A DNA stretch of 53,270 bases from Candidatus Levyibacteriota bacterium. GTDB lineage: Bacteria; Patescibacteriota; Microgenomatia; Levybacterales; UBA12049. The notes beneath the pieces were generated by a model, which did not search any database, had not been told where the DNA came from, and saw only the letters and a program-made list of their open reading frames with translations. The DNA lies in assembly GCA_027459745.1 (NCBI GenBank), contig DAIDHL010000008.1:1-53270 (forward strand), written 5' to 3'. Of the stretch, positions 1,122 through 41,436 are shown one piece after another (the stretch's first letter is position 1; each line of letters opens with the position of its first letter). The translations under genes and the position numbers were made by a program.

Positions 1122-1192
1122 TGTCGAGTCGTCTAATGGTAGGACAACAGACTTTGGATCTGTTTATTCTGGTTCGAATCCAGGCTCGACAG
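1122..1192 (+). tRNA. tRNA-Gln(TTG), CCA not encoded
   Basis: Acceptor stem TGTCGAG/CTCGACA, D arm GTCTAATGGTAGGAC, anticodon arm ACAGA-CTTTGGA-TCTGT, T arm CTGG-TTCGAAT-CCAG, discriminator G. Confidence 0.95.
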
Positions 1193-2861
1193 CTAACATA
1201 CCTTGACCAGACATAAAATCATCGTTTAGCTTGATACACTGGGCTAATTTAGGTGTTCCAGAAAGTATTTCCGCATAGGTTGGGGCTTCATCGAATAAAA
1301 CCCCAAAATAGGCTGCTTTTTGTACAGAATCCGTGCCTAAAATGAGTAATTCTTCTAAGTGTTCCAGAAAATATTTGATGTAGACCATAACTACCTTCAT
1401 ATCTATTGGCTGTGCGTCAACTGCTTTCTGTTTCTCACCTAAAAGATCAGTGAGCTGCTGTTCTGTTGTTATCAATTCCTGCTCCATATACTTAATCGCA
1501 ACTTCAGAGGTTAAAAACTTTATCTTATCAATTGTCTGCTTTGTCTGTGTTTTTAATTGCGTAATCCTGTCATCAATAGTAACTTCATCTTTTACGACTT
1601 CTATATTTCGCTTTTCCCACTCAGTATTTACATTATTAACCAGTGCGTCAATATATCCATCTGCAAGTCGAATGTTCTTCACAAACTTAAATATTGCATC
1701 TTCAAAATCTTTCTTCGGTACACGTAAATAATGCCCCCGCTTATTACAGTGATAGGCTGGATAGTATTTGCCCAGACGTCCTTTTGAGGCACTGCCAAAA
1801 AACGGTTTTTCACAGTGCGGGCACAATACATATTTTCTATATGGAAAATCAGGATTTCTTACGCCTTTCTTTAGTAGCCATTCGGGAGTTGGCTTTTTGT
1901 GTATTGTTACCTCACCGTTTTCTTCAGAAATAATAATTTTGCCATTATTTGCCTTGTTGAACATATCTATTGAGACTAATCCGTCATATTTAGCTTTTAC
2001 ACGCTGATTTGCCGTCCATTTTTCCATGCTTACTCCGGCGTAGATTGGATTTTGGATGAAGCGCCAAAACCCCTTGATATTTAGAGGATTTCCACCGTGT
2101 TCTTTTTTGATTTTGGTTCTATCGTGTGCATCTCTGATGTATTTCACTCTGGTAATAAAACCTAATTTGTTAATCTCCTCAACAATTTGGTGATCGTTGA
2201 GGGTTCCATGACACCGGAGCTCAAACATCTTAATAATAAATTGGGCTTCAGTCGGATGAGGTTTTAAGATGCAACGTTTTCCATTTGGTGTTTCTATTTT
2301 CTCAATGACATAACCGTAAGGAGCTTCCCTGACCCAATAACCCATCCGAGCATAACGAATTTCAGCTCCGATCATTCTTGACATAATATCCCGCATCTCG
2401 TCTTTTGCCCGTTCTGCTTCTAATATTTCGGCTTTTTTCGTAGGAGAATAGACACTCCAGTCAAAGGAGACACCTAAATGCTCTAATGTATTTACTTTTT
2501 GTGAGCTAATGATGCCGTAGATGTCGATAAGTTTAATATTGCAGTGATCAAGCTGCATTTTTAAATAATCGTAAGAGTATGAACCACCTCTAGTAAATCG
2601 GTCAATGGATTTAATAATAAAGAGCTGGATATTATTAGCGGGATGTTTACAGTAATTAACCGCTTCCTGCATAGGCTGCTGCTCTTTGGACGCAGATTCC
2701 ATAAAAACAAAGAACTTTTTAATTGTAATATTGTGAGTTTGAGCAAATCTTTCTAATTGTTCTTTTTGTGCCTCAGGAGAATCACCATCCGTTCCTTGTT
2801 TGGTTGATGATACACGGATAGCTGCGACTGCATTTTCAGGATTTGATAGGATTGTATTCAT
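1164..2861 (-). CDS. Large serine recombinase (integrase)
   Basis: N-terminal IRVSSTKQ catalytic Ser motif, SIDRFTR, APYGY recombinase domain, CPHC...YHC zinc ribbon, coiled coil; the last codons overlap the tRNA. Confidence 0.93.
   Translation of the reverse strand: MNTILSNPENAVAAIRVSSTKQGTDGDSPEAQKEQLERFAQTHNITIKKFFVFMESASKEQQPMQEAVNYCKHPANNIQLFIIKSIDRFTRGGSYSYDYLKMQLDHCNIKLIDIYGIISSQKVNTLEHLGVSFDWSVYSPTKKAEILEAERAKDEMRDIMSRMIGAEIRYARMGYWVREAPYGYVIEKIETPNGKRCILKPHPTEAQFIIKMFELRCHGTLNDHQIVEEINKLGFITRVKYIRDAHDRTKIKKEHGGNPLNIKGFWRFIQNPIYAGVSMEKWTANQRVKAKYDGLVSIDMFNKANNGKIIISEENGEVTIHKKPTPEWLLKKGVRNPDFPYRKYVLCPHCEKPFFGSASKGRLGKYYPAYHCNKRGHYLRVPKKDFEDAIFKFVKNIRLADGYIDALVNNVNTEWEKRNIEVVKDEVTIDDRITQLKTQTKQTIDKIKFLTSEVAIKYMEQELITTEQQLTDLLGEKQKAVDAQPIDMKVVMVYIKYFLEHLEELLILGTDSVQKAAYFGVLFDEAPTYAEILSGTPKLAQCIKLNDDFMSGQGMLAVEPGFEPE
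1181..1193 (+). repeat. attL (CAGGCTCGACAGC)
   Basis: tRNA 3' end; 11/13 identical to 41424-41436. Confidence 0.75.
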
Positions 2862-2862
2862 A

Positions 2863-3033
2863 TTATTTCATCTGAATTTTGGTTTTTAATATTACACTAC
2901 CGTTTCTCTGATCTTCCAGCATTTTATCGATGATAAGGTTGGCCAAAAAACAAATTCTTTCTTCTATTGAGAGAGTTGAAGTAATGGGGCGAGTATATGA
3001 TTTTTTGTTCAAAATACCTTTAATTCTACCCAT
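2863..3033 (-). CDS. 56-aa protein directly upstream of the integrase (candidate directionality factor/DNA-binding protein)
   Basis: Own translation: MGRIKGILNKKSYTRPITSTLSIEERICFLANLIIDKMLEDQRNGSVILKTKIQMK; stop is 1 nt before the integrase ATG; lies just after a promoter. Confidence 0.7.
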   Translation of the reverse strand: MGRIKGILNKKSYTRPITSTLSIEERICFLANLIIDKMLEDQRNGSVILKTKIQMK

Positions 3034-3038
3034 AATTG

Positions 3039-3087
3039 AATTATCCTTACAAGGATAATTGTACTATCCCTACAGGCATAATGTCAA
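3039..3087 (-). promoter_or_regulatory. Integrase-operon promoter with a palindromic operator pair
   Basis: Minus strand TTGACA(3087-3082)-N18-TACAAT(3063-3058); perfect IR AATTATCCTT-AC-AAGGATAATT at 3039-3060; degenerate copy TATCCCTACAGGCATA at 3065-3080. Confidence 0.7.
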
Positions 3088-3188
3088 GTAAGAAAACAGT
3101 TATAATTAACCACTGTTAATTCAATTTAATAGGTCTATATTAAATTAATAATCACATTTAGATCATAATGATATAATTATATATATCT

Positions 3189-5333
3189 ATGGCATTCGCA
3201 AGTGACGCAGCAATCGAATCTAGAAAAGAAGATCGACTTAATCGATATCCTTTTTCAGAGCATTTAGGTAATGCAATTCTTAATTGGACTAATATTGAAA
3301 CTATGGTTCTGGGATTGTATGGTGAATGGGGAGCTGGTAAAAGTTCTATAATAAATTTATCTCTAGAGTATATTATAAAAACAACAGGAAAAGATAATAA
3401 AACATCACCTATAATATTTCGTTTTAATCCTTGGAACTTTACCGAGCAAAATCAATTAGTTACTATTTTCTTTTCTGAGTTATCAAAAGTTATTGGATTT
3501 CAGGGAAATTCAGAACAAGCAACTGAGATAGGAAAAAAACTATTATCTTACAGTAAATTCTTTACACCCCTAACTATCTTAGCACCATTTTTTCCTCAAT
3601 TCGCTGAATTAATGAAATTGCCAGAAAGTACTTTAAAGGAAATGGGTAATGCCACAAAAGAATGGTCTGAACTTAATGATAAAGATTTATCCGCAATTAA
3701 AGCTGAACTCTACAAGCAAATTATAAAACTTCATCGCAAGATAATAATAGTCATAGATGATATTGATAGATTAAATAATCAAGAGATGCGGCAGATCTTT
3801 CAACTAGTTAAAATGAATGCTAATTTCCCAAACACAATATATATTCTTTCTTTGGACGATCAAAAGGTTGCTGCCATGTTAACAGAGGATAAATTCCCAG
3901 GAAAAGATTATTTAGAAAAGATTATACAGGTACCGTTCCATGTACCAACAATTGAGAAAGCTCGACTAGAGAAAATTCTATTTAAAGAATTAGATTCCAT
4001 TATAAAACCACTCTTATCAAAATCCACCCCTTTTGAGAAAAAAAGGTGGCAAGATATATACTTTGAAGGGTTAAGTGGTGTCTTCCCTTCGTTGCGTAGT
4101 GTGAAACGGTATATCAATAGTTTACGTTTTACTATTATGCTTGTCCCAAACGAAATTAATATTGTTGATTTTATGGGTATTGAATCTCTTCGTGTATTTT
4201 TTCCCGAAGTTTACACGCATATTGCAAAAAATAAAACATTATTTGTTGGTGATGTGTACTCTATTGATCGGGATGATAGGAAAGCTAAAGTGGAGAAAAT
4301 TAATAAAATGGTAGAAAGTGTACCTGAATCTGATAGAAAATACGTTTTACACATAATATATAAACTATTCCCACAAATTGCTAATAATTATGGATCTGAG
4401 TGGCAGGATATTTGGGAAGGTCAAAAATTTATCTGTTCTAGATATAGATATGATAGGTACTTTTTCCTTTCAGTTCCAGAAGGACAATTACCACAACAAG
4501 AAATTAATAAACTGATTGTAAAATCTGATAATATAAATGATTTAGAAAACTCATTAATAAAATTAATTAGATTGAAAAGAGTAAGAAAGTTTTTAAGTCG
4601 GTTACCTGATTTTAAAGAATTAATACCACAAAAAAATATAGCAAATTTCATTATTGCTATGTTTAATATTAGCGATAAACTTCCACAAGGCAGAGAACAT
4701 GATTTTGACTTCGGAGCAACAATGGAGGCTACTCGAATTGCGTACCACCTACTAAACAATATCGAAGATCAAAAAACAAGACAAAAGATTGCATTTAAAG
4801 TTATACAAGGTACTTCTGGAATAATCGCACCATTGGAGTTCGTATTTTATGAGGTAGAAAGAATGGAAAAAAATGAACATACCAGACTATTTAAAGATAA
4901 TAAGACTGTCGAAAAGCTTAAAGAAATAATGTGCAAGAAATTAGAAGAACGAGTAAAAGTTGATAATTTAAAATCTGTCCCTAATTTACAAAATATTCTA
5001 TTAATTTGGAAGAATTGGAAGGGTGATGAAAAGGCTAAAATATTAGTAGCATCCCTTCAAACAAGTACTGACGGAATCGGGAGCATTTTAGAAGGATTTA
5101 GCTATCAACGACATTTTGGGAATCCAAAGAATATTAATTTTTGGGATATATCATTTAAAAGTATTGAAATGTTTACGGATATAGAAGAATTTAAAAAGAA
5201 AGTGAAATCCTTATCAAAGGAAGATATAAAGTTATTTTCGCCACAACAAAAAATGGCACTTAAACTTTTTAATAAATTGATTAAATTTCCTAAAGGAAAT
5301 ATAAATGATTCTATAGAAGATAATCATGAATAA
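3189..5333 (+). CDS. KAP family P-loop NTPase
   Basis: D..DRLNR start, Walker A GEWGAGKSS, FNPWNF, Walker B IVIDDIDRL, YLEKIIQVPF, KRYIN. Confidence 0.9.
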   Translation: MAFASDAAIESRKEDRLNRYPFSEHLGNAILNWTNIETMVLGLYGEWGAGKSSIINLSLEYIIKTTGKDNKTSPIIFRFNPWNFTEQNQLVTIFFSELSKVIGFQGNSEQATEIGKKLLSYSKFFTPLTILAPFFPQFAELMKLPESTLKEMGNATKEWSELNDKDLSAIKAELYKQIIKLHRKIIIVIDDIDRLNNQEMRQIFQLVKMNANFPNTIYILSLDDQKVAAMLTEDKFPGKDYLEKIIQVPFHVPTIEKARLEKILFKELDSIIKPLLSKSTPFEKKRWQDIYFEGLSGVFPSLRSVKRYINSLRFTIMLVPNEINIVDFMGIESLRVFFPEVYTHIAKNKTLFVGDVYSIDRDDRKAKVEKINKMVESVPESDRKYVLHIIYKLFPQIANNYGSEWQDIWEGQKFICSRYRYDRYFFLSVPEGQLPQQEINKLIVKSDNINDLENSLIKLIRLKRVRKFLSRLPDFKELIPQKNIANFIIAMFNISDKLPQGREHDFDFGATMEATRIAYHLLNNIEDQKTRQKIAFKVIQGTSGIIAPLEFVFYEVERMEKNEHTRLFKDNKTVEKLKEIMCKKLEERVKVDNLKSVPNLQNILLIWKNWKGDEKAKILVASLQTSTDGIGSILEGFSYQRHFGNPKNINFWDISFKSIEMFTDIEEFKKKVKSLSKEDIKLFSPQQKMALKLFNKLIKFPKGNINDSIEDNHE

Positions 5334-5410
5334 TAGTTAGTGCTAAATTCTCACTTTTTACTTTTCCTTGGATCTGTGCTATAACTCAAGCTAATTCCTG
5401 CCTATGAAAC

Positions 5411-8149
5411 ATGAAAGTGCAGGAAATCATTACTAATCTACAATTCGGCCATATTATTCGTGTGCCATTATTGTATATAGAGCATGAGATACAAGTAATG
5501 ACTACATCACAGCAACAAACGTATATTTTCATCCCTACAATTTATGTTTTTGTTGTAATCGCTCTAATAATTTATTTAGTTCGTAAAATCCTTATACTTC
5601 GAAGAAATTTTTTACAGGAATCTGTATTACTGGAAATAACTCCCCCTGCTTTTACAGAAAAATCCGCTTATACCACTGAACAATTATTCTCTGTTATTCA
5701 TAATGCAAAAAATGGGAACAAATTCATTAATTTGTTACTTGATAAAAAAACAGTATTTTCATTTGAAATTGTTTCAACACGAGAAAAAGGGATTCGGTAT
5801 GTTATACGAACGGATCTAAAACAAAAAGAAAATTTGAAACGGAAAATAACTTCTTATCTTCCAGGAGTTTTAGTTCATGAAGTAAAGGACTATTTGAAAA
5901 ATCCAATAGAGACATATAATTCATCTCGACAAATTATTGAATTAAAACTTAGTAGTCATTTTGCATATCCACTCGAGAAACAGAATATGCTTGATCAGCA
6001 TGATCCTGTGGCATATATAACAGGTATGATGACTCAGTTAAAGAAGGATGAGTTAATTGCCATACAAATTGTTCTTGCACCAATAAAAACAATTGAGGCA
6101 AAGAAGATATCTAATATGATTTTGAGACAGGAAGATGTGCTCTCGTATCTTGATTCAATTCGACCATCTGGTTTTGTAAAGGTATTGCTTGATGCTATAA
6201 AACTAATTGGACTGATTATCAACAAAGTAGGTCAAGAGTTACAATGGGCACTCACTGAAATGATGCATGGCAGTAGCAGTATGAGTTCTGTAAATATGTA
6301 CAGTACAACTGCTTATCAACAGCAATTGAAAGTAACCAAAATTAAACCAATGCGCCAACTCTCTTCTTTTGAAACAGAAATTGTGACTTCAATACAGGCA
6401 AAGATTACACAACCATTATTTGCAACTAGCATTAGAGTACTTGTTTCTGTAAGCTCTCAAGATGAATTACAAGAACGTGTGAATGGATTAATTTCATCAT
6501 TTGAGCCATTTAGTGTTCCACAATATCAGTCGCTTAAAACAAAGTGGAATTTCCCACCAGTTCTTATAAAACAGATTCGTGATCTTGTTTTTCAAAAACG
6601 ATTATTATCTCTTATCAATAACAAAAGCTCTTCTCTTCTCTCAGTTTCAGAAGTGGCAGATTTATATCATTTCCCTTTTTCTAACGTTACCCAAACAGAA
6701 AATATCGCAAAAAGCTATAGCTATGAGTTGCCAGCTCCTGTGTCTCTAAAACAAGGAACAAAATTTGATGTAATTTTTGGAAGAAATATGTATGCGGGCG
6801 TCGAAACACTTATTGGATTAACACCTGATCAACGAGCAAGACATATGGTCATTTTTGGAGGAACTGGAAATGGAAAAACAACGTTGATATCAGAAATGAT
6901 GCAGCAAGATATGCAAAATGGGAAAGGCCTATGTTTTATTGATCCGCATGGAGACGCAGCAGAACGTGCATTACAAATGATTCCCACGGATCGCGAAAAA
7001 GATGTCGTTTGGGTCGATCCGTATGACATAGATCGTCCTCTGGCAATTAATTTAATGGAGTTGACACCCAACTTAAAACAAAATGATGCACTACGCGAGA
7101 AAGAACGTGTTGCTGAAGGTATTGTATCCCTCTTCCGAAGAGTTTGTGCGAGTGATTTTTCTAAAGCTGGGAGTAATGCATTCCGTATTGAGAACACACT
7201 CCTCAACGCAATCTATACAGCATTTTACGTTCCCGATTGCACGCTCTTTACTATTTATGATTTGTTAAATGATCCGGTATTCCTCAGAAAAACAGTTGGA
7301 AGCATAGAGGATAAACGATTAAAAGATTTCTGGAAAAATGAATTTGGCAGGGCAGGAGATTATCAAATAGTAAAAATGGTTGGTGGTGTAACTGCAAGAA
7401 TTGGTAAGTTTCTGCATAGTGAATCAGCGCGAAGAATATTTGAGCAACCAAAATCAACGCTTCTATTTGATCATTTGATGGATAGTAAAAAGATAATCTT
7501 GTGTAATCTTTCAAAAGGAAAATTGAGTGAAGACATATCACAGGTTATCGGCACAGCTATCTTAACAAAAATGCAACTCTCTATTATGGCAAGAGCAACA
7601 ATACATGAATCAGAGCGAATACCTTTTTATCTATATATTGACGAATTCCAAAACTTTGCGAGCGATTATTTTGTCGGGATGTTAGCTGAAGCAAGAAAAT
7701 ATAAGTTACATATTGTTATAGTTGAACAGTCAACGAGTCAGCAACAAGATCAGAGCCTTATCAATATTATTCTTGCCAATGTGGCAATTATCATTTGTTT
7801 TAGAACAGCAAACCCAGCTGATGAGGATTTAATACTGCCACAATTTGCACCTATGGTGAAAAAGGGAGATATCATGAATCTTCCCTGGTTTCATTTTTTT
7901 ATTAAAATATATGCCGCTGTTGCACAAGAACCTTTCACCGGTGAAACAGTACCCCTTAGAGCTGGAGATGACAAAGAGAAAGGTAAAAGAATTATACAGC
8001 TATCTAGTCAAAAATATGGGAATATATATAAGCGTCTACATCCAAAAAGTGATGCACAACAGACACCCAACATTATCGATACAAAGGATAAAAATAATAA
8101 AACTATTACAGATACTACTATAATAAAGGGTTCACCTGATGAAAATTAA
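5411..8149 (+). CDS. Type IV coupling protein-like ATPase (VirD4/TrwB/TraD family) with long N-terminal domain
   Basis: N-terminal TM, RHMVIFGGTGNGKT Walker A, IDPHGD, LYIDEFQNF Walker B, EARKYKL; start uncertain. Confidence 0.85.
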   Translation: MKVQEIITNLQFGHIIRVPLLYIEHEIQVMTTSQQQTYIFIPTIYVFVVIALIIYLVRKILILRRNFLQESVLLEITPPAFTEKSAYTTEQLFSVIHNAKNGNKFINLLLDKKTVFSFEIVSTREKGIRYVIRTDLKQKENLKRKITSYLPGVLVHEVKDYLKNPIETYNSSRQIIELKLSSHFAYPLEKQNMLDQHDPVAYITGMMTQLKKDELIAIQIVLAPIKTIEAKKISNMILRQEDVLSYLDSIRPSGFVKVLLDAIKLIGLIINKVGQELQWALTEMMHGSSSMSSVNMYSTTAYQQQLKVTKIKPMRQLSSFETEIVTSIQAKITQPLFATSIRVLVSVSSQDELQERVNGLISSFEPFSVPQYQSLKTKWNFPPVLIKQIRDLVFQKRLLSLINNKSSSLLSVSEVADLYHFPFSNVTQTENIAKSYSYELPAPVSLKQGTKFDVIFGRNMYAGVETLIGLTPDQRARHMVIFGGTGNGKTTLISEMMQQDMQNGKGLCFIDPHGDAAERALQMIPTDREKDVVWVDPYDIDRPLAINLMELTPNLKQNDALREKERVAEGIVSLFRRVCASDFSKAGSNAFRIENTLLNAIYTAFYVPDCTLFTIYDLLNDPVFLRKTVGSIEDKRLKDFWKNEFGRAGDYQIVKMVGGVTARIGKFLHSESARRIFEQPKSTLLFDHLMDSKKIILCNLSKGKLSEDISQVIGTAILTKMQLSIMARATIHESERIPFYLYIDEFQNFASDYFVGMLAEARKYKLHIVIVEQSTSQQQDQSLINIILANVAIIICFRTANPADEDLILPQFAPMVKKGDIMNLPWFHFFIKIYAAVAQEPFTGETVPLRAGDDKEKGKRIIQLSSQKYGNIYKRLHPKSDAQQTPNIIDTKDKNNKTITDTTIIKGSPDEN

Positions 8150-8318
8150 AGTCAATTTTGTGGGTACGCGTGTCCATAAAATTTCATCTATAGTGAACCT
8201 AAATAAAACAAAACTACATCCTATTCTTTCTTATATATAAGAAGATGTGTTATACTTCACATCTAGTTTACAATACTAACTTACTCCTTGCCCCTGCTCT
8301 CTATTCTCAACTTACACT

Positions 8319-9092
8319 ATGCTCTTACAATCTATCACTCCAAAACAATTACAAATCTTACGCCTTCTTTATACCTTCCGCTTTCTTACTACTACTCATT
8401 TTCAACTACTTATGCATCATAAAAGCCCTAGTCTTATTCAAGAATGGTTGAAAGATTTGGTAGAGAAAGGTTATATAGTCAGTTCATATTCTAGACAAAA
8501 GCGAAATGAAAATACCAAGCCGGCAATCTTTCATCTTGTTTCGCCTGCCAGACATATATTAAAAAAAGAAAAGGATATTGAGATTGAGGCATTACGATTA
8601 ATTTATAAAGAGAAACGAAAAGGGAAAAAGTTTATTGATCATTGTCTTACACTTGCTGATATCTATTTATTCTTTGAGAAAAAATTAAATAAAGATGAGA
8701 CACTTAAATTTTTTACACGAACGATGTTGACAGGATATGACTATTTTATCAAACCAATACCTGACGCATTTATTGCAATAAAAAATACAACTGGAACAAA
8801 GCGTTATTTTTTGGATTTGTTTGATGAATATACACCTCCATTTGTGTACAGAAAAAGAATTAGACAATACCTTGAATATTCCAGACAGGGTGACTGGGGC
8901 TTAAATACAAATCAAAACAAATTACCTGTTGTATATTTTGTCTGTCCTAATGAAACAGCGAAAAAGCATGTGTACTGGTATGGAAAAAGTATTATTGAAA
9001 AATCATTTGAAGAAGTGACTTTATTTGTCACGACCAAGGACACAATAAAATTTGCTAAAGAAACTCTTGATCCTTGGCAAAAAGTAGCATAA
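8319..9092 (+). CDS. Replication-relaxation (Replic_Relax) family protein, putative relaxase
   Basis: N-terminal wHTH (QILRLLYTFRFLTTTHF), HCL, PD...YFLD PD-(D/E)xK-like core; follows the coupling protein. Confidence 0.75.
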   Translation: MLLQSITPKQLQILRLLYTFRFLTTTHFQLLMHHKSPSLIQEWLKDLVEKGYIVSSYSRQKRNENTKPAIFHLVSPARHILKKEKDIEIEALRLIYKEKRKGKKFIDHCLTLADIYLFFEKKLNKDETLKFFTRTMLTGYDYFIKPIPDAFIAIKNTTGTKRYFLDLFDEYTPPFVYRKRIRQYLEYSRQGDWGLNTNQNKLPVVYFVCPNETAKKHVYWYGKSIIEKSFEEVTLFVTTKDTIKFAKETLDPWQKVA

Positions 9093-9117
9093 CTAGGCAG
9101 ATGGGCAGGGATTTAAA

Positions 9118-9450
9118 CTATATATTCTTATCTAGGCATTCAACCGAACAATACCCGTTAAACGTACTAAAATCCTTTTCCTCACTGAGCGCGTTATGCT
9201 GTGTACCTTCATAGCCACATTGTGGACATGTATAGAATTGGACAATATATTGTTCTGACTGATCAAGAACTCCGACGTTATAGTCTTCATCAGATAAGAA
9301 AACATACCCACTACTTGTATTGAAGTTAAGCGTTAAACCACAATTTAAGAATTCTGCACCATGCTCTGCATAAGCTTTCAATAGCAATTGTGCAAATATG
9401 AGTTCTCTAATTCCAAATTGTGAGAAATCAGCTGTTATTACTGTGCTCAT
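9118..9450 (-). CDS. Hypothetical protein with C-terminal CxxC...CxxxC (leading-region/phage-like)
   Basis: ORF with RBS GAAAGGGGTGA; FNTSSGYVFLSDEDYN motif; CPQC and CSVEC. Confidence 0.65.
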   Translation of the reverse strand: MSTVITADFSQFGIRELIFAQLLLKAYAEHGAEFLNCGLTLNFNTSSGYVFLSDEDYNVGVLDQSEQYIVQFYTCPQCGYEGTQHNALSEEKDFSTFNGYCSVECLDKNI

Positions 9451-9495
9451 TAATTTCACCCCTTTCTGGCTGCGTAATTTTTGAAAATATTTTTA

Positions 9496-9629
9496 TAGGA
9501 AGCAGCCTGCCTGCTTCCTAATACGAGAACGAAGTGATAGCAGGGTGAATTTTGCAAGGGCGAGACAACGATCTCGTTTATATACCCTTGCAAAAGAGGG
9601 GCGCAGCCCCTAACTCAGCAGATCGAGTT
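9496..9629. repeat. GC-rich inverted-repeat cluster (candidate oriT / single-strand origin / ssDNA promoter)
   Basis: TAGGAAGCAG/CTGCTTCCTA (9496-9520); TTTTGCAAGGG/CCCTTGCAAAA (9550-9595) enclosing CGAGA/TCTCG; AGGGGC/GCCCCT (9597-9611); AACTC/GAGTT. Confidence 0.6.
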
Positions 9630-9734
9630 GATTATGTAATACGTTATTACTTACATAGAAAGAGAAGATGAGCAATTTTCAACAACTTCTAGCAATTTCT
9701 ATACCATTTACTATAATAGTGAGAGCCATTTAAT

Positions 9735-10910: not shown

Positions 10911-11034
10911 TTTAGCCATACAGAACTAACTAAATATTCAAAAAAAGCCATAATATATTTGTCAGCGTCTTTTAAGTGTCATATATAAGCTAACACGAAG
11001 CTATGCTATAATTTCAACTTATGTATAGTACGAA

Positions 11035-12000: not shown

Positions 12001-12035
12001 TAACCAACATAGTACGATACATTCAAAGACACTGA

Positions 12036-12437: not shown

Positions 12438-12457
12438 ATCATCACCTCCTTTAAAAA

Positions 12458-30535: not shown

Positions 30536-30542
30536 AGTGTCT

Positions 30543-30556: not shown

Positions 30557-30590
30557 TATTTAAAATTAGATTTTACAATATCGTAAATAA

Positions 30591-31313: not shown

Positions 31314-31314
31314 A

Positions 31315-33543: not shown

Positions 33544-33544
33544 A

Positions 33545-33904
33545 TTATTTAATGATGATTTTCCCGTGATACATATTCATTCCACATGCATACGTAAACT
33601 CTCCTGCTTCAGTTGGTTTTAGTTCAATAGTTACCTTTTTATTCATTGGTAAATATCTTCTCGTTTTTAAATCACCAAGTACCACTTCTTCTAAACAATT
33701 GCTTGAGTCTTTGCGGATAAAGTTAATTTTTGTTGTTTTACCTTTTTTAATTGCAATTGTAGCGGGGGAATATCCTCCATCTACGATAATATCGACTGAA
33801 TCAGAAACCTCTGTAGCTTTTTCATTCTTCATCAAGAAAAACCAATAGACAAAGAAAATTGCAAAAATATCAGTAAAAGTAACAAGTAATTTATCTATTG
33901 GCAT
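33545..33904 (-). CDS. Cupredoxin-domain protein (CupA-like)
   Basis: [20 protein letters not shown]. Confidence 0.85.
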
Positions 33905-33907
33905 ATA

Positions 33908-34426
33908 TTAGTCTCCACATGTCGTGCTTTTCTTCGCCATTTTTGTCATATAGTCTTTTGTAACCGCTTGAGAGAGAAGAGCAGCATCGTTACTGCCAAT
34001 AAAGACAACTAAACTTTCATCTGGTTGAATAGGCTGAGATTGAAAGTTAGCAATTTGTTTTCCGTTTATATACCCAGTTGTTTTTGTATAGTCAATTGGA
34101 AAGCTGATGTTGGTGAACAAATCTCTCCACGTCGCTCCATCCCGTTCAACATGTACCAAATCACCAACATTCTCATGTAAATGAGCTTTTTCCATTTGTA
34201 TCGTCTTACTATTTTCATTTTTATTCGTTTCATTTATCGCACAAGGTTCTATGTACATATATTTAATATCTGAAAAGTCTATTTTTTTATTATTTTGGAA
34301 AACGACAAATCCAGCATGGTAATGGACTTTTTTAGGAGTAAAAAAATTATTTGAAGCGAAGATGAGTGATGTGCCTAACAAGATAAATACAATGATTACT
34401 ACGATGTAAAAAAACTTTTTTTGCAT
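33908..34426 (-). CDS. Membrane-anchored His-motif protein
   Basis: VHYHAG, AHLHE, VHVE, Cys pair. Confidence 0.7.
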   Translation of the reverse strand: MQKKFFYIVVIIVFILLGTSLIFASNNFFTPKKVHYHAGFVVFQNNKKIDFSDIKYMYIEPCAINETNKNENSKTIQMEKAHLHENVGDLVHVERDGATWRDLFTNISFPIDYTKTTGYINGKQIANFQSQPIQPDESLVVFIGSNDAALLSQAVTKDYMTKMAKKSTTCGD

Positions 34427-34431
34427 AAAGA

Positions 34432-34704
34432 TTACGACTTTTTGTTAAAGACTTGCATAATTTCAGCTATCGCTTCTTTATCTTTCCCTTTTCTGATTGC
34501 ATCTGAAACACAAGTTTGTAAATGATTTTCGAGGACAACATTGCTCGTTTGTTTCAGCGCACTTTCCACTGCCTGCATTTGATGCAATACATCAATGCAA
34601 TAGGCATCTTCTTGTACCATCTTCATAATTTTCTCCAAATGTCCTTTTGTAATTCGTAAACGATGATAGATTCTCTCTTGTGTGTCTTTTGGTCTATACG
34701 CCAT
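34432..34704 (-). CDS. csoR: CsoR family copper-sensing repressor
   Basis: YC.DVL.Q..AV, HLQTCV; ATG start at 34704. Confidence 0.9.
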   Translation of the reverse strand: MAYRPKDTQERIYHRLRITKGHLEKIMKMVQEDAYCIDVLHQMQAVESALKQTSNVVLENHLQTCVSDAIRKGKDKEAIAEIMQVFNKKS

Positions 34705-34753
34705 ATATCCCCCCAATAGAGATATTGTCTAACAGAATGTAATAACTTGTCAA
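34705..34753 (-). promoter_or_regulatory. csoR promoter and C/G-tract operator
   Basis: ATATCCCCCC-A-ATAGAGATAT pseudo-palindrome at 34705-34725; minus-strand TTGACA at ~34753-34748. Confidence 0.6.
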
Positions 34754-34825
34754 GAGTCAATCGGTTTAGTTAAAAAATGGAAGGGGAAGAAAAATCTTTT
34801 TAGTATCTAAGCCAAAAATGGATTA

Positions 34826-35026
34826 CTACAGATCACTAGTCTTAATTGCTTCAATCATCTTTTTATTTCTCTCCTCAGCATAGTGATTATTCACAATAAA
34901 TAATGCAAGAATAACCGAGGGAAACCAGAAAAAGAAAAGCAAAATGATACTTACAAAAAATAATCCAATTCTCCCGCAAAGAAGGATTGCTAATGGTGGA
35001 AAAATAATTGCAAGTAAATAAAGCAT
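34826..35026 (-). CDS. YqaE/Pmp3 family small membrane protein
   Basis: YLLAIIFPPLAILLCG...WFPSVILA. Confidence 0.75.
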   Translation of the reverse strand: MLYLLAIIFPPLAILLCGRIGLFFVSIILLFFFWFPSVILALFIVNNHYAEERNKKMIEAIKTSDL

Positions 35027-35161
35027 ATTTACTGATATAGTTTAATACATTGTTGAGGCTATTGCAATTCGTGAATTTTTCTGGTATACCTTTCTTACAA
35101 TTTTCTGTTGCCCAATTGAGCAGCTTTTTTTGTCTAAAAATATTAAGGAAAGGAGGCATAT

Positions 35162-35503
35162 ATGAAAAAACTTATTTATCTCTCATCACTGTTATTAACA
35201 ATGCTTATTGCAGTCACACCAGTCTATGCGGCTTCAGCAGATGTTACAAAAATCCAAACCTTTATCGAAAGTATTACAGGTATTCTTACAACGTTAGCTA
35301 GTGCTGTTGCAATAGGATTTTTTGTCTGGGGTGGATTTGGATATATCACAAGTTCAGGTAACCCAGAACATTTAGATCGGTCTAAAAAAACACTGCTTTA
35401 TTCAGCCATTGGTCTAGCAATCGTTCTTGGTGCCTTTATGTTATCGAACATTGTGACACAAGTAGCAACTAGTGCTTTTGGAGCAGCTCCTACAGGGCAA
35501 TAA
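35162..35503 (+). CDS. TrbC/VirB2-like pilin
   Basis: Signal peptide, two hydrophobic helices around GGFGYITSSGNPE; strong RBS. Confidence 0.8.
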   Translation: MKKLIYLSSLLLTMLIAVTPVYAASADVTKIQTFIESITGILTTLASAVAIGFFVWGGFGYITSSGNPEHLDRSKKTLLYSAIGLAIVLGAFMLSNIVTQVATSAFGAAPTGQ

Positions 35504-35518
35504 GTTGATACTCACATT

Positions 35519-36820
35519 ATGAAAAAGATATTTAACAGTCTAGCCATACTGATTGGTTTTTTTATGTATGCTCCACCTGTTTTTGCAGTTGGTTCGGATA
35601 TACAAAATTACACATCCGATACATTACAAAGTATCATCCTCATCGCGTCCGCTTTAGCGGGCTTTTTTTTAGTTAAGGGAGGGTATTTCTATATTACCTC
35701 CTCTGGTAATCCTGAGAATTTAGAGAGCGCAAAACGAACGATTCGGAATGCGGTCATAGGTCTTCTATTGGTGTTAAGCGCAGGATTTATCGTGACACTC
35801 CTTCAAAATACATTTACTGGTCAAATAACGCTGAACAGTCCATCTTCCGTCTCACTTACTCCTATTGCCCCACAACTACCAACGGATGGCGTCGGTACAG
35901 TAATGATCAATGGCATTAATGCAATCATGCAAAATATTATTCAGAGTGCAACCAAACCACTCCTTGATGCGATCATTGGGTACTTAACAACTACTCCCAG
36001 TTTATTAAGTAATGCTGTTGTGTTTAACTTTTGGCTAGTCACCCTAGGCATTGCTGACGCGTTATTTGTTCTAGTCGTTGCAGTCTTGGGACTTCAAGTC
36101 ATGTCTGCGAGTAGCTTTGGATTTGAAGAGATAGAATTAAAACATTTACTCCCACGAATTAGCTTAGCATTCTTAGGAGCCAATGTTTCATTATTTTTAT
36201 GTGACTATGTGATTACTACCTGTAACGCACTTGTGTCAGAAGTACTTCATACGACCGGAGGATTAGATCACGCGTGGGTAGTCAATGCGGCAACGTACCA
36301 AGCAATTGGGAGTAACCAAGCTCCTATGATTACGCTTATTTTTTTACTCCTCTTTATTATTATCGCAATTATTCTTCTGTTTATGTATGTAGTACGCCTT
36401 ATTGTGATTGCATTATCTGGAGTACTTGCACCATTTATCTTCTTACTTTGGGCAATACCAAAATTCTCTGATTTTGCAGAAGCTGGCGTTCGAGGATATT
36501 TAGCCACTGTCTTTATAATATTTGTGCATGTCATAGTTATTCAACTTGCTGCTTCATTTCTTTCCCTTCCAGATCATGCAAATAACTCCATTTTAGCTGT
36601 CGTTATTGCCATAGGGTTATTTTTAACACTTTTAAAGATCCCAACCTGGTTATTCCAAATGATGTTTTATACAAGCCGAGTTGGCTCACTCAAACGCATG
36701 GGTGCACAGATGCTTAACGCCATGACAACACATAAAACAGAAGATAATACTATTGGTTCTCAACCCTCATATGGAGTAGATGCTGAGATACAAAAAAGAA
36801 GGAGATATATAAACGCATGA
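35519..36820 (+). CDS. Pilin domain fused to a VirB6/TrbL-like polytopic protein
   Basis: N-terminal pilin repeat, then about 6 TMs with R...L...AP...W..P. Confidence 0.72.
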   Translation: MKKIFNSLAILIGFFMYAPPVFAVGSDIQNYTSDTLQSIILIASALAGFFLVKGGYFYITSSGNPENLESAKRTIRNAVIGLLLVLSAGFIVTLLQNTFTGQITLNSPSSVSLTPIAPQLPTDGVGTVMINGINAIMQNIIQSATKPLLDAIIGYLTTTPSLLSNAVVFNFWLVTLGIADALFVLVVAVLGLQVMSASSFGFEEIELKHLLPRISLAFLGANVSLFLCDYVITTCNALVSEVLHTTGGLDHAWVVNAATYQAIGSNQAPMITLIFLLLFIIIAIILLFMYVVRLIVIALSGVLAPFIFLLWAIPKFSDFAEAGVRGYLATVFIIFVHVIVIQLAASFLSLPDHANNSILAVVIAIGLFLTLLKIPTWLFQMMFYTSRVGSLKRMGAQMLNAMTTHKTEDNTIGSQPSYGVDAEIQKRRRYINA

Positions 36821-37329
36821 GAACAAGAATAATTCCAGCACAAATTACAACCGTTGAAGATAAAATTGCTGGCAATATAAGTGTGACACAATTACTTATC
36901 CTGATGATCCCAGTTATATTTACGACCAGTGTATTTATTTTGTTGCCACCGCACATGCAGATTAATGCATATAAGCTGGTATTTTCGTCTATAGTTCTGA
37001 TTGTCAATCTTATACTCGCATTTAGATTTAAAGGGAAGGTTATCGCCCACTGGCTCATTATCCTTCTTCGTTACAATATGCGTCCACGATGGTATGTTTT
37101 AGATAAGAATGAATCATACCTTCGAACAATGCATGTACCAACACTAAAGAAATTACATAAACATGCGGCACAATCATCAAAGATTCAAGATGCCAAACCA
37201 GTTGTAAAAGATATTTCTTTTCCAGGACTTGTGCAACTTGAGCAATTAATCAAAGACCCAGCATATACCTTTTCATTAAAACTTAAGAAGAGAGGAGGAC
37301 TGCAAGTTGCTCTTAAACAAATCTCATAA
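36817..37329 (+). CDS. PrgI/VirB3-like protein
   Basis: IPAQITTVEDKIAG.IS..QL, 2 TMs; ATGA coupling. Confidence 0.78.
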   Translation: MRTRIIPAQITTVEDKIAGNISVTQLLILMIPVIFTTSVFILLPPHMQINAYKLVFSSIVLIVNLILAFRFKGKVIAHWLIILLRYNMRPRWYVLDKNESYLRTMHVPTLKKLHKHAAQSSKIQDAKPVVKDISFPGLVQLEQLIKDPAYTFSLKLKKRGGLQVALKQIS

Positions 37330-37921
37330 AGCGTCAAGTAGACGACAAATTCAAATCAAAGAAGTAAAAGATAACATATTGGTACTACCTGATAACCAAT
37401 ATCGGTTAATACTGGAAACAAGTAGTATTAATTTTGAATTAAAAAGTGAGGAAGAACAAGATGTCTTGATTGATAGTTTCCAAAGCTTTTTGAATGCCCT
37501 TCCCTGTCCTCTCCAAATGCTTATTCGTGTTCGAGAAATAGATATAGAAGCATATATCGAACAAATAACACATAACAAAAATACAGAGAAAGAAGAAGTG
37601 TATAGAGAACAAATTGACAGCTACGCTGCTTTTATTAGAAAAGTTGTTTCTGGAAATAAAATTCTATCCCGTCGTTTCTATGTGGTGATTCCATATCACT
37701 CAATTGATCGAAAACACGACTTTTCAATCATTAGCGAGCATCTTAATTTGTCACGAGATATTGTTATGCGAGGTATTGAAAAATTAGGAATGAAAGCACG
37801 TCAGCTTAACAGTATCGAACTTCTCGATTTATTTTATTCGTTCTATAACCAAACAGCGAGCAAGACTCAGGAACTAAAAGGACAAACAATCGAAACAATT
37901 CTACAAAATACCTATGCTTAA
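37307..37921 (+). CDS. TraC/VirB4 N-terminal-like protein
   Basis: SSINFELKSEEEQ...FLNAL..P.Q, RRFYVVIP. Confidence 0.72.
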   Translation: MLLNKSHKASSRRQIQIKEVKDNILVLPDNQYRLILETSSINFELKSEEEQDVLIDSFQSFLNALPCPLQMLIRVREIDIEAYIEQITHNKNTEKEEVYREQIDSYAAFIRKVVSGNKILSRRFYVVIPYHSIDRKHDFSIISEHLNLSRDIVMRGIEKLGMKARQLNSIELLDLFYSFYNQTASKTQELKGQTIETILQNTYA

Positions 37922-39749
37922 CTTACCACAATTACCAATTGCACAGTTACAAAGAATTGATTTGCAAAAGATGCAAAAGCAATTAAGAAGGAAAATAAAA
38001 AAGTATTTGAGCAAAAAAGAGAAACTCAAACAATCATTCCAGTTTAACTTTGGAGAGCAAGATCAGATTGATCTACTTTCGTACTCAGGGCTTGAGGAGA
38101 ACTCGTCATATCTGCAAATGGATGATAAATTTGTTCGAACACTTTTTATCTCAGGCTATCCATACGTCGCAACAACGGGCTGGCTCAATATGCTGATTAA
38201 CTTTAATTACAATAGTGATATCTCTTATCACATAGAGCAAATTGATCCGCTCCTCGCACTTCCAAAACTAACAAGAAAAATAACAGAGCTTGAAGCAACA
38301 AAACGAGCAATGATCAAAAGTGGAAAAATAATAGGATCAGAAATTACAGATCCTTTAGATTCAGCTATTACACTAAAAGATAAGATTCTGAGAGGACAGG
38401 AAAAACTGTTTCAAATTTCAATATATATAACTCTCACGTCAGATAGCTTGAATGAACTCAATAAAGTATCGACAATTCTGCAAACCGTGATGTCCAGTCG
38501 TTTGTTCTACATTAAGTCTGCAACATTTCAGCAGCTCGAAGGATTACAATCAACACTTCCTCGTGGAGAAAATATATTATTACAGAGACGGAATTTAGAT
38601 AGTTCAAGTGCAGCCTTAACATTTCCATTTATCTCAAGTGAGTTAGTCCAGGAATCAGGGATTTTATATGGGATTAATCGATCAAATAACTCTTTAGTTA
38701 TTATTGATAGGTATTCACTCAATAATGCTAATGCAATTGTCTTTGCACAGTCAGGTAGTGGAAAAAGTTACACAGCTAAAGTGGAAATTCTTCGTCATTT
38801 AATGCAAGGAACCAAAGTGATTGTCATTGATCCTGAGCGGGAATATAAACAGTTGGCTCAGTCAGTCAACGGTACATATATTAAATTATCGAGTACCTCA
38901 AAAGAAAAAATAAACCCATTTGACTTTTCTCTCCACTCTCATGCCAATGAAGCAACGCTTGCTGAACATGTCCAGGATCTAACAGAGATCATTGCGCTTA
39001 TGGTCGGTAGTTTATCGCCAGAAGAGAGAGCAATTGTTGATAAGGCAATACTTCAGACATATAAAAATTTTGGCTTCACACTTACTGGGAAGCGAAAACT
39101 AAAAAGTAAAAAAGAAGAATTCCCATTACTTATCGATCTATATACAGTTCTTAAGCATATGAAGCAAAAAGATTTATGTGCACGTCTTGAGCGGTTCGTC
39201 AAAGGATCTTTGGCAAGTGTGTTTAATGAGCAAACGAATATAGAGCTAGATAATCGATTGGTTATTTTTGATATCAAAGATCTTCATGAATCGTTACGCC
39301 AAATTATGATGATAGCAATTGCTAATTTTGTGAATACACAAGTGAAATCTTTTCCACAAAAGAGAATGTTGGTGATTGATGAAGGTTGGATGCTATTAGA
39401 ACACGTTGAATCAGCAAGATTTATCGCAGGACTTGTCAGAAGAGCAAGAAAATATTATTTGGGAGTGACTATTATTTCCCAACAAGCCAATGATTTCTTA
39501 AGCCAAGATTATGGTCGAGCAATTGCCAGTCAATCCAGTCTTCGAGTTCTGATGCGACAAGACACAACAACTATTAAAAAAGTTGCTCAAGAATTTCATC
39601 TTAGTGAATATGAACAACAGTTCCTTCTTACCTGTGATCGCGGAGAAGCATTAATTATTGCAGATCAGAATCATGTCGCCGTCAAAGTCGTCGCTAGTGA
39701 GAAAGAACATCCATTGCTGACAACTGATCCTAAGGAGATTTATCTTTAG
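37914..39749 (+). CDS. virB4: VirB4-like conjugative ATPase
   Basis: AQSGSGKS, IDPEREY, INPF, IDEGW, RRARKY, ISQ. Confidence 0.88.
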   Translation: MLNLPQLPIAQLQRIDLQKMQKQLRRKIKKYLSKKEKLKQSFQFNFGEQDQIDLLSYSGLEENSSYLQMDDKFVRTLFISGYPYVATTGWLNMLINFNYNSDISYHIEQIDPLLALPKLTRKITELEATKRAMIKSGKIIGSEITDPLDSAITLKDKILRGQEKLFQISIYITLTSDSLNELNKVSTILQTVMSSRLFYIKSATFQQLEGLQSTLPRGENILLQRRNLDSSSAALTFPFISSELVQESGILYGINRSNNSLVIIDRYSLNNANAIVFAQSGSGKSYTAKVEILRHLMQGTKVIVIDPEREYKQLAQSVNGTYIKLSSTSKEKINPFDFSLHSHANEATLAEHVQDLTEIIALMVGSLSPEERAIVDKAILQTYKNFGFTLTGKRKLKSKKEEFPLLIDLYTVLKHMKQKDLCARLERFVKGSLASVFNEQTNIELDNRLVIFDIKDLHESLRQIMMIAIANFVNTQVKSFPQKRMLVIDEGWMLLEHVESARFIAGLVRRARKYYLGVTIISQQANDFLSQDYGRAIASQSSLRVLMRQDTTTIKKVAQEFHLSEYEQQFLLTCDRGEALIIADQNHVAVKVVASEKEHPLLTTDPKEIYL

Positions 39750-39752
39750 ACC

Positions 39753-40352
39753 ATGTCCACTGTCTTATCATTTTGGCTTGAACTTCGATTATTACTCATA
39801 ACATTCTTTATCGTTCTTATCGTACTTCCGATACTCGCGATGCTGACGCTCACTAACTTTGGTTTCCAGGATGTGTCCGATAAATTAGTTACTGTTAACG
39901 CTAAAAATCATACGGTTGAAATTCATGATTTAGATGGAACAACTACAACAATTACTGAAACAATGATTTGGCCAGTAAATGGTGTCGTCACACTTGAATT
40001 TGGTCAACCTGATCCTCCATATCAACCACTACATACTGGGATTGATATAGCCAATCCTGAGGGCAAACAAGGTGATTCTATTCACCCTTTCATGAAAGGT
40101 ACCGTGATCTATGCAGGTGAGGACTTATCTGGTTATGGCAAGCATGTGATTATTAATAATGGTAATAACATAACGAGTCTTTATGGACATATGAGCGCAA
40201 TCAATTCAAAAGTAGGTGCAACAGTGAATACGAGTGAAGTTATCGGCTATGAAGGTCAAACCGGCTGGGCAACCGGTCCCCACGTGCATTTTCAAATCAA
40301 TGTATACGGTATTCCTGTTAACCCGAGAACGTTTTTAATGGGAAATCCATAA
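39753..40352 (+). CDS. M23 family peptidase
   Basis: HTGID, YGH, TGPHVHF. Confidence 0.9.
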   Translation: MSTVLSFWLELRLLLITFFIVLIVLPILAMLTLTNFGFQDVSDKLVTVNAKNHTVEIHDLDGTTTTITETMIWPVNGVVTLEFGQPDPPYQPLHTGIDIANPEGKQGDSIHPFMKGTVIYAGEDLSGYGKHVIINNGNNITSLYGHMSAINSKVGATVNTSEVIGYEGQTGWATGPHVHFQINVYGIPVNPRTFLMGNP

Positions 40353-40407
40353 TATTGTTCAGAAATACAAAAAACAATTCAAAGTTGTATAATTATGAGA
40401 CTCATCT

Positions 40408-40620
40408 ATGAATAATAACTATGCAATTAAACTTGGTCAGAAACTGAAGGATTTCCGACTTAAAAAGAATTTGACTCAAATTGAGATTGCTGAAAAAGCT
40501 GAAATAAACAGTAATTACTATGCTAAAGTTGAGCGTGGTGAAGTTAAGGTAAGTATGGAGTTAGCATCTAAAATTGCAAAAGTATTAGGCGTGAAACTTG
40601 AAGATATAAAACCCTCCTGA
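40408..40620 (+). CDS. XRE family HTH regulator
   Basis: LTQ.EIAEKA.I..NYYAKVERG. Confidence 0.9.
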   Translation: MNNNYAIKLGQKLKDFRLKKNLTQIEIAEKAEINSNYYAKVERGEVKVSMELASKIAKVLGVKLEDIKPS

Positions 40621-40627
40621 AGCTGTT

Positions 40628-40837
40628 TTAATTTATACTTTTCTTTTCATTCTGTAATTTTTTATACATATCTACCAATTTTTCAAAGTCAGTATGTGCA
40701 AGTAGATGAATATTCGCTTGAAGATACTCCAAAATTTGTATTGCCATTTCCGGTGTAGCATGTTCGGGGTCTGTACGTTTTAAAATTCCAAGTACAATAT
40801 CAATATCCTTTTCATTTATCTCGTATTTTTCAGCCAT
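40628..40837 (-). CDS. Hypothetical 69-aa protein
   Basis: ORF track; DPEHATPEMA; co-oriented with the PLD gene. Confidence 0.65.
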   Translation of the reverse strand: MAEKYEINEKDIDIVLGILKRTDPEHATPEMAIQILEYLQANIHLLAHTDFEKLVDMYKKLQNEKKSIN

Positions 40838-40859
40838 ATTGCCTGTAGTATATCAGTAA

Positions 40860-41300
40860 TTATAGAAATTTTTCAAATTTTAAGAAATCAAACATTTCTT
40901 GAGCTGATTGTTTCCCTTCAGTTCTTCTCATAATTTCCCTGCTATATGTTTGAGAAAGGATATTTAAGCTTCCTTCCCAAAGAATAGTTCTATCAATGAT
41001 TGCAAGTTTTCGATGATGATTGCCTAAACAGAGAAACGTTTGTACTCCCATTACTTCAAATTTTCGAATTATCGTTTCTGATTGTATCTCCATTCCCTCA
41101 AAATGTTCTTTTGGGTCTCTGGTAAAGATGTAAATTTCAACTCCTTTATTCAACAACTCTTGAAAAATTGGGAGAAATATATGTGCTCTTTCATACGTTA
41201 CAAACGGACTTTCGATAATTATCTCTTTTTTGCAATTTCTCACATCTTTTAGAAATGCATCGTAGAAGGTTTTCTCATCAAAAAGAGCGGAGTTAAACAT
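40860..41300 (-). CDS. Single-domain phospholipase D family (Nuc-like) protein
   Basis: IESPFV, HRKLAIID...GSLN (HxKxxxxD); RBS AAGGAGG. Confidence 0.87.
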   Translation of the reverse strand: MFNSALFDEKTFYDAFLKDVRNCKKEIIIESPFVTYERAHIFLPIFQELLNKGVEIYIFTRDPKEHFEGMEIQSETIIRKFEVMGVQTFLCLGNHHRKLAIIDRTILWEGSLNILSQTYSREIMRRTEGKQSAQEMFDFLKFEKFL

Positions 41301-41436
41301 GACCGTCCTCCTTTTCTAATAAAGAAATAATAGATACCTTTCCGTTATAATATGTAAACCCTAATTTCCTCAGTTTTTCAAAGGTATTGAGTAAGCTAGG
41401 CACGATTTGGTTCCACCTACGGGCAAGCTCGCCAGC
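41293..41436 (-). other. Orphan 3' segment of the integrase gene (46 codons), joined on excision
   Basis: Frame A-GELARRWNQIVPSLL...EDGHV* is in register with integrase Ala557 across the att repeat; its stop overlaps the PLD start. Confidence 0.7.
41424..41436 (+). repeat. attR (CAAGCTCGCCAGC)
   Basis: 11/13 match to attL, at the end of the element backbone. Confidence 0.72.

Follow-up and report, generated by a model that had tools for sequence, protein, structure and literature searches.

Large serine recombinases such as the phiC31, Bxb1 and A118/LI integrases are valued genome-engineering tools for their strict directionality, and how direction is set and reset is a central question. In these systems attP lies outside coding sequence and the targets are protein-coding genes. 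Genes that contain their own attachment site are known from tyrosine recombinases: the SSV1-type partitioned integrases of archaeal viruses are split in two large parts, and in the integration-dependent immunity of mycobacteriophages BPs and Brujita a tyrosine integrase acts within a repressor gene, the removed part being a degradation tag. Here we describe a stretch of 53,270 nucleotides (the window; contig DAIDHL010000008.1 of assembly GCA_027459745.1) from the genome of a Candidatus Levyibacteriota bacterium (1.37 Mb in 22 contigs), in which a large serine recombinase has very probably placed its own integrative conjugative element (ICE) of about 40.2 kb at the 3' end of tRNA-Gln(TTG), splitting the integrase gene at the att core.

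Three known kinds meet in this locus: integration by a serine integrase, integrase genes split by att, and C-termini that depend on integration. With the phiC31, Bxb1 and A118/LI integrases it has in common a resolvase domain, a recombinase/zinc-ribbon/coiled-coil fold, short att sites, few shared crossover bases and a 5-bp shift of the outer motif between half-sites of the attB and attP types. Unlike them, it has the core inside its own open reading frame (ORF), is targeted to a tRNA 3' end and makes a protein that differs between states, and its sequence likeness to the solved large serine recombinases is too low for a PDB profile match. As in the SSV1 type, attP lies within the integrase ORF and the gene is cut at a tRNA target; however, the enzyme has the resolvase domain and fold of a serine recombinase rather than the tyrosine recombinase fold, and it loses its last 46 codons only, keeping an open, conserved ORF when integrated. 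As in BPs and Brujita, attP sits in the 3' end of a gene and integration alters the C-terminus, so that there the viral and prophage forms differ, but the gene is that of the recombinase itself rather than a repressor, and the tail, whose end is acidic, shows no sign of being a degradation tag. In engineered fusions of integrases with recombination directionality factors (RDFs), a C-terminal addition sets direction and the state of the DNA can decide which form is made, as described in PMC6511857, which cites Olorunniji et al. (2017). Those fusions are synthetic, whereas the swap here is natural, the added part has only 46 amino acids (aa) and its role in direction is a candidate one. Our full-text searches, which covered main texts mostly outside the subscription journals, turned up no account of a serine integrase whose gene is split by its att site. 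A natural clade in which recombination rewrites the C-terminus of the enzyme offers two protein forms, four sites and one candidate partner for experiment, and may reveal direction control without separately regulated factors.

The two junctions

The window holds a single tRNA by ARAGORN, tRNA-Gln(TTG) (Table 1), and in the tRNA list of the genome this isoacceptor has a single copy, the one at 1122-1193. The sequence-only reading had the integrase end in the antisense of this gene, which is borne out by the tRNA calls and by the translation of ORF 1164..2861. The 565-aa integrase ends in GMLAVEPGFEPE and a stop; the codon of Ala-557 is 1193-1191, residues 558-565 come from tRNA antisense, and the final nine codons with the stop are the antisense of the variable loop, T arm and acceptor stem. 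The core GCTG (integrase sense) is invariant in all five aligned attL sites of the Gln subfamily, and core identity between attL and attR in the window amounts to 4 nt. In G003, a genome of the same genus, a 95.6% identical integrase adjoins tRNA-Gln(CTG) with the same junction; in the genome of the window, this isoacceptor is unoccupied (G000:C18:30851-30922) and its 3' end also bears the CAGC core.

At the other end, the minus-strand ORF 41293..41541 includes A-GELARRWNQIVPSLLNTFEKLRKLGFTYYNGKVSIISLLEKEDGHV followed by a stop, with its Ala codon at 41436-41434. The Ala codons at both ends begin on the junction base and are thus in the same register, and 556 + 47 gives 603 aa; the predicted near copy in register, and the predicted change from 565 to 603 aa, agree with both codons and with the arithmetic. 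The near copy of the tRNA-end sequence is 13 nt long (41424-41436) with two mismatches. Comparison places the boundary more sharply. Three places in the sister genome G001 (same genus) share about 77 nt with window 41361-41436, and these copies and the window form four aligned sequences that are unrelated outside and alike from base 41436 inward. From the outside, the flank beginning at the next base resembles a G001 intergenic stretch (L110 1501-1532; Table 1). That counterpart has an ICMT-like gene on one side, trpR/trpE-like genes on the other and no tRNA close by, and a TAGCCTCA word likewise recurs downstream of the empty tRNA-Gln of the sister genome. Beyond 41436 come ordinary chromosomal-type genes, a GDSL hydrolase and then a DUF1800/DUF1501 protein, which has a 73% identical homologue in a different context in G001. 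A 23-nt probe for a displaced tRNA 3' fragment, with up to three mismatches, matched only the tRNA itself in the window. No small contig of the assembly matches the window or offers an alternative junction, and a query with 41437-42300 against 121 genomes of the family returned no syntenic tRNA-flank pair.

Table 1. Features of the integrated element and its ends, in window coordinates
Feature	Position	Strand	Remarks
tRNA-Gln(TTG)	1122-1193	plus	ARAGORN; Rfam tRNA 62 bits over 1122-1192; B arm of attL
Large serine recombinase (probable), integrated form, 565 aa	1164..2861	minus	Pfam Resolvase; Foldseek of family member
T-loop GTTC (GAAC in integrase sense)	1172..1175		nt 19-22 from core start; proposed zinc-ribbon-domain motif, B arm
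attL core CAGC (GCTG in integrase sense)	1190..1193		common to attR; crossover dinucleotide within core
Conserved 56-aa ORF upstream of integrase	2863..3033	minus	ends one base before integrase start
PLD-like nuclease gene	40860..41300	minus	ATG overlaps tail ORF stop (ATGnnTAA)
Orphaned integrase tail	41293..41436	minus	47 codons including junction Ala, + stop
GTTC (GAAC in integrase sense)	41410..41413		nt 24-27 from core start, P' arm; 5 bp further out
attR core CAGC	41433..41436
B' flank outside element	41437..41468		28/32 identical to G001 intergenic stretch; likeness starts exactly at 41437

The tail as a conserved coding module

A translated search found a tail of 46-47 aa in 39 of the 245 genomes of the order. 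Thirty tail loci were examined, from which two cut-short tails (27 aa and 2 aa) were dropped at a cut-off of 38 aa, leaving 28. The tail is orphaned in 27 of these, its in-frame lead-in consisting of 0-54 unrelated codons. Across the 28 tails, codon-position entropy is 0.88/0.71/1.38 and nonsynonymous variation (pN 0.315) lies below synonymous variation (pS 0.709); the coding frame is free of stops in every tail, the other two frames in one and two tails respectively. Conservation peaks 75-105 nt from the junction, in a block of the type LGFTYYNGKV, and the tail ends in a Glu-rich stretch and then a few variable residues. Whole serine-integrase sites measure 40-50 bp, according to the relevant part of PMC12286644. 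We count the tail as protein-constrained because the conserved block lies well outside any such site; judged by this pattern of variation, the tail evolves as coding sequence. The sequence-only reading had staked itself beforehand on coding conservation of the tail beside the distal end of relatives, and such conservation is what the 28 loci display.

A profile of the tail gave 345 matches at E <= 1e-3 among 1.84 billion representative proteins. Among the 150 matches listed, 143 are proteins of 33-124 aa with the tail at the C-terminus, which look like gene-caller ORFs starting in random flank. As the sequence-only reading had proposed, the tail was also sought among homologues of large serine recombinases, and there it was found in frame behind integrase C-termini. 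In G127, an integrase that starts at about residue 147 continues into the tail within a single 459-aa ORF, with a PLD gene next. Inspection of nine of the tail-profile matches yielded P0185 (154 aa), P0204 (120 aa) and P0209 (122 aa), each with an integrase C-terminal domain running into the tail in one ORF. The tail of P0185 also stands behind an unrelated ORF in P0183 and behind a subtilase in P0225, and P0007 (571 aa) stops after the first 11 tail residues.

Splitting across tRNA targets

The best 120 integrase homologues are 59-77% identical to the window integrase and mostly end in antisense-tRNA peptides of the type LA-x-x-x-GFEP. Over the family as sampled, the integrase ORF overlaps an antisense tRNA in 128 of 160 loci: among 80 metagenome loci there are 69 with such an overlap, 4 in which the ORF runs off the contig and 7 without a tRNA (3 of them within 60 nt of a contig end), and among 80 species-representative loci the corresponding numbers are 59, 13 and 8. 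The relatives come from records of Patescibacteria, Microgenomates, WWE3, Saccharibacteria and similar groups, and the targets include tRNAs for Gln, Glu, Lys, Ser, Val, Asp, Asn, Ile, Arg, Trp, Leu and Gly, with a spread of at least 13 tRNA species. Six loci whose integrase ends are 97-99% identical by eye part ways at one nucleotide and continue into tRNA-Lys (two loci), tRNA-Glu(CTC) (two), tRNA-Glu(TTC) and one non-tRNA sequence. Because near-identical integrases diverge at a single nucleotide into different tRNAs, the tRNA-overlapping part is not the element's own, and we excluded the possibility that it is. The claim that the att site lies inside the gene thus stands as a structural reading, and it applies not to this copy alone but to a large recombinase clade with many tRNA targets.

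Both ends could be compared in other elements. Each of five long-contig genomes (one a complete WWE3 genome) has exactly one tail copy, on the integrase strand and about 16-32 kb upstream. The codon phase of the core agrees between the two ends in all four pairs inspected and likewise in the window and the 9.3-kb G087 element, six of six in all. For this comparison attL was written in frame with the integrase and attR in frame with the tail; a longest-common-substring approach misplaced the junction in four of five pairs. Cores are 4-13 nt long, with 8 nt in G087 and G245. A single-protein scan and an alignment scan of viral contig collections returned no relative.

Contigs often end at or just past the 3' end of the integrase gene, as the 13 and 4 off-contig ORFs in the two sets of 80 illustrate; these ends could be assembly breaks where integrated and free forms coexist.

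Proposed attachment half-sites

Counted from the first core base in integrase sense, the T-loop sequence GAAC of the B arm occurs at nt 19-22 and its counterpart in the P' arm at nt 24-27. This applies to L151, L159 and G087 as well as to the window, whereas an element that targets tRNA-Glu has the two at 20-23 and 25-28. The 5-bp shift between the B and P' arms is exact in six of seven elements, L149 being a 1-nt variant. The LI integrase has its zinc-ribbon motif 5 bp inward in attB relative to attP, as described in the part of Rutherford et al. (PMC3783163) that concerns these sites. Two subfamilies translate the stretch TGGAAC as W-N-Q and a third translates it as (L)-E-H; because the frame differs between subfamilies, this part of the tail appears to be constrained as DNA. 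The family appears to read the conserved T-loop and acceptor end, which would explain the many tRNA targets of close relatives and is relevant to target-site design.

Enzyme class and the candidate 56-aa partner

The integrase matches Pfam PF00239 (Resolvase) over residues 12-101 at 32.2 bits against a cut-off of 23.3, and Zn_ribbon_recom at 19 bits, under the cut-off of 25.3. R16, S18 and Q22 are invariant in 45 family members, the nucleophilic serine being a putative assignment. A profile search of PDB sequences with the integrase gave no match. AlphaFold2 (AF2) was run on the fused G127 homologue rather than on the window protein. The model has a predicted local distance difference test score (pLDDT) of 87 and the expected domain order, with two long helices after a beta-rich, Cys-containing domain. 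A helical C-terminal region comes next and then the tail, which is modelled as a helix (414-436) and a hairpin (439-448), both at pLDDT 81-86, followed by a disordered acidic end. Foldseek with this model returned serine-integrase structures at ranks 1-27 among the matches listed (best E = 3e-8), with 9y66, 4kis, Bxb1 and phiC31 among them. Taken together, the resolvase domain, the fold of the homologue, the short att sites and the 5-bp shift make the window integrase a probable member of the large serine recombinases. A winged-helix fold for the tail was considered and dropped, the helix-turn-helix (HTH) fragments to which an Atlas feature search pointed scoring 0.79-0.87, below the 0.9 level, and no PDB match being found.

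The 56-aa ORF in front of the integrase gene recurs, by tblastn, in 116 of 160 family loci. Complex prediction for its product with the 565-aa integrase scored 0.70 (median of 0.72, 0.05 and 0.70), the best of three controls reaching 0.02; of 80 solved complexes 58 attain the 0.70 mark, as do 2 of 110 mismatched pairs, counts that apply here only approximately because custom alignments were used for the prediction. The runs agree in at least 34% of contacts, with a partner pLDDT of at least 45. The predicted interface comprises integrase residues 343-353, 399-418, 486-506, 518-526 and 540-543, which are the zinc ribbon and the base of the coiled coil together with the domain that ends at the junction. 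The prediction supports, at the level of a model, binding of the 56-aa protein to the integrase; this protein is a candidate directionality factor or regulator.

Proposed mechanism and alternatives

On the reading that the integrase split its own gene, the free circular form would encode a 603-aa enzyme, since the core lies nine codons before the stop of the integrated gene. Its last 46 residues would be the peptide now stranded at 41296-41436, whereas the integrated form ends in eight arbitrary residues read from tRNA antisense. The tRNA itself remains intact, because exchange falls on the discriminator base or immediately past it. For the attB half-site the enzyme would read the acceptor and T arm of the tRNA, and for the matching attP half-site the tail-coding DNA; the two have the same core-proximal bases, and in the tail-coding arm GAAC is displaced outward by 5 bp. 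While the element is free, the 56-aa ORF, the tailed integrase and the PLD nuclease may constitute one translationally coupled unit, which integration would cut. The tail may also change the behaviour of the enzyme between states; the likeliest effect would be on directionality or partner use, because the predicted site of the 56-aa partner adjoins the C-terminal domain.

A bolder proposal, which we consider rather doubtful, is that the tail and the 56-aa partner form a built-in direction switch that is also aimed at the near-universal tRNA T-loop. The integrated gene would then yield a tail-less enzyme that accepts the RDF-like partner and so promotes excision; excision would rebuild the full gene, and the tail would fold beside the partner site (residues 486-543, near the junction at 557), where it would block or alter partner use, so that the free element integrates. 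If true, this would be a natural serine integrase with direction written into its own att-split gene.

Several other accounts of the same locus need to be weighed. One has a fair claim on the data, although we would not bet on it: the gene is split as described, and the tail has no role in recombination control, being the natural end of the protein or a carrier of ribosomes into the PLD gene, with the integrated form an equally active or merely tolerated truncated enzyme. The antisense-tRNA endings of integrated forms are arbitrary and differ widely in length, as if any ending were tolerated; in many loci the stop codon of the tail and the start of the PLD gene overlap, and in 19 of 28 the PLD gene comes next; and the tail matches no family or fold. 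Yet residues 14-40, which lie 40-120 nt from the core and so beyond sites of 40-50 bp, are conserved as protein across genera, the tail is kept in the nine of 28 loci where no PLD gene follows, and AF2 gives it a confident helix and hairpin. It is very improbable that the tail should be a small gene in its own right, or nothing more than a conserved DNA site, with an in-frame position that is incidental. Its first codon is GTG in one subfamily, a possible start (read as M in 11 rows), and its first ten or so codons overlap the proposed attP half-site, with TGGAAC read in two frames; however, the AGE subfamily is without a start codon on or close to the tail, every locus has an unrelated upstream flank, which leaves no room for a conserved ribosome site, the codon phase matches the integrase in all six elements, natural fused ORFs exist, and protein-level conservation reaches far past any att site.

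Still less credible is that the match at 41424-41436 is a coincidence and the true end lies elsewhere, for instance near 52.6 kb, where synteny with G001 resumes, or that the crossover falls deeper in the tRNA, the element bringing a tRNA 3' part of its own, and leaves the integrase unsplit. A G001 homologue of 52650-53270 does lie about 1.9 kb from the unoccupied tRNA-Gln, and the 13-mer is near chance. Against this stand the lack of a displaced tRNA fragment in the window, the edges of conservation at 41436/41437 from both sides, the conjugation and PLD genes that end at 41300 before chromosomal-type genes begin, and the near-identical integrases, which part at the core and not deeper in the tRNA.

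A number of results weigh against our reading of a gene split by its own integration. The 13-mer by itself is near chance (0.20 matches expected at up to two mismatches, and two or more in 2 of 100 shuffles); we count it as the true junction because in the comparison it is precisely at 41436 that likeness begins, and because the tail recurs widely as a coding module in frame. No circle junction or empty site of the window element was found in the reads or contigs examined. Two public runs matched 5-7% of sampled words, and their contigs, placed on window 1-3200 at 80% likeness, are fragments of relatives with no informative joint. What follows the unoccupied tRNA-Gln(TTG) of G001 bears no relation to the window from 41437 on; the stretch 41.4-52.6 kb of the window is without synteny in this sister genome, G001:C5 sharing the DUF1800 gene only. 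Among the natural fusions, the G127 copy is split over two frames, with the N-terminal integrase part in the other frame, and P0185, P0204 and P0209 are short metagenomic fragments. We found no intact full-length fused integrase of the AGE subfamily to which the window belongs, and a word-index search for long tail-bearing proteins returned none. At family level, 15 of the 143 loci whose ORF end lies within the contig are without tRNA overlap, and one of the five long-contig tail matches is weak (E = 9e-4). By eye there is no convincing symmetric motif in the P and B' arms, the shift being seen in B and P' only. The tail matches no Pfam family, and the C-terminal 125 aa alone (pLDDT 74) gave 0 PDB fold matches at E <= 0.001 in Foldseek.

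Element content and related loci

By Pfam scans, the element body (1194..41436) carries conjugation genes for a KAP NTPase, a 912-aa coupling protein, a Replic_Relax protein (37.6 bits against a cut-off of 25.3), a pilin of a type IV secretion system (T4SS), PrgI, TraC/VirB4 and an M23 peptidase. The TraC/VirB4 ATPase is encoded as two overlapping ORFs of 204 and 611 aa (37307-39749). Cargo genes for metals specify a multicopper oxidase, two heavy-metal P-type ATPases and a CDF transporter, and further cargo comprises DsbA-like and DsbD-like thiol-disulfide proteins, an M56 sensor and a Crp-type regulator. By this gene content the element is an ICE, with transfer as the predicted outcome; a prophage was rejected, since conjugation machinery, coupling protein and Replic_Relax protein lie between defined ends.

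Most T4SS clusters of Patescibacteria are without relaxase, and non-conjugative roles have been suggested for them in PMC12102498, in the main text of which the words integrase, recombinase and tRNA are absent. The cluster described here is like them in its monoderm-type VirB4, pilin and PrgI-like set; unlike the clusters as described there, it shares a recombinase-bounded element with a coupling protein and a Replic_Relax protein. At least some T4SS clusters of Patescibacteria thus sit in recombinase-bounded, apparently mobile elements with metal-resistance cargo.

Between the conjugation genes and the PLD gene (40408-40837) lie a plus-strand HTH gene of the XRE type (70 aa) and, on the minus strand, an ORF of 69 aa, an arrangement also found next to the PLD gene in G111 and G127; the two genes are candidate regulators of the integrase-PLD unit. 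A palindrome with TACATAGTGTA occurs three times, at 15528-15551, 16928-16951 and 30540-30563, ahead of the DsbA-like gene, the M56-sensor/regulator genes and the DsbD-cupredoxin genes. We take these palindromes to resemble operator boxes of the CopY/BlaI type, and they may be a shared metal-responsive operator.

Relatives of the conjugation and metal genes of the window occur in G001 at L100 (G001:C8 7808-9392) and L101 (G001:C14 2796-4364), in elements whose serine recombinases are only about 22% identical to that of the window and lie beside tRNA-Leu and tRNA-Phe. A match to integrase residues 504-549 at 45% identity (L019, G001:C8 7774-8010) stands beside tRNA-Val, just past the far end of the G001:C8 element, and in G003 (L105) a PLD gene is followed by tRNA-Val. 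In G001:C19 (L017, 4477-5698), a 77-nt copy of the tail start, joined in frame, breaks an endonuclease III-like gene about 40 codons in; downstream come an HTH ORF, a PIN-domain ORF and then the later nth-like piece, and the locus has the appearance of the remains of an element that had entered a protein-coding gene. A further 77-nt relic of the tail, in G001:C4 (L016, 3512-4750), is followed after about 110 nt by a DDE transposase gene that by eye resembles an IS481-type element.

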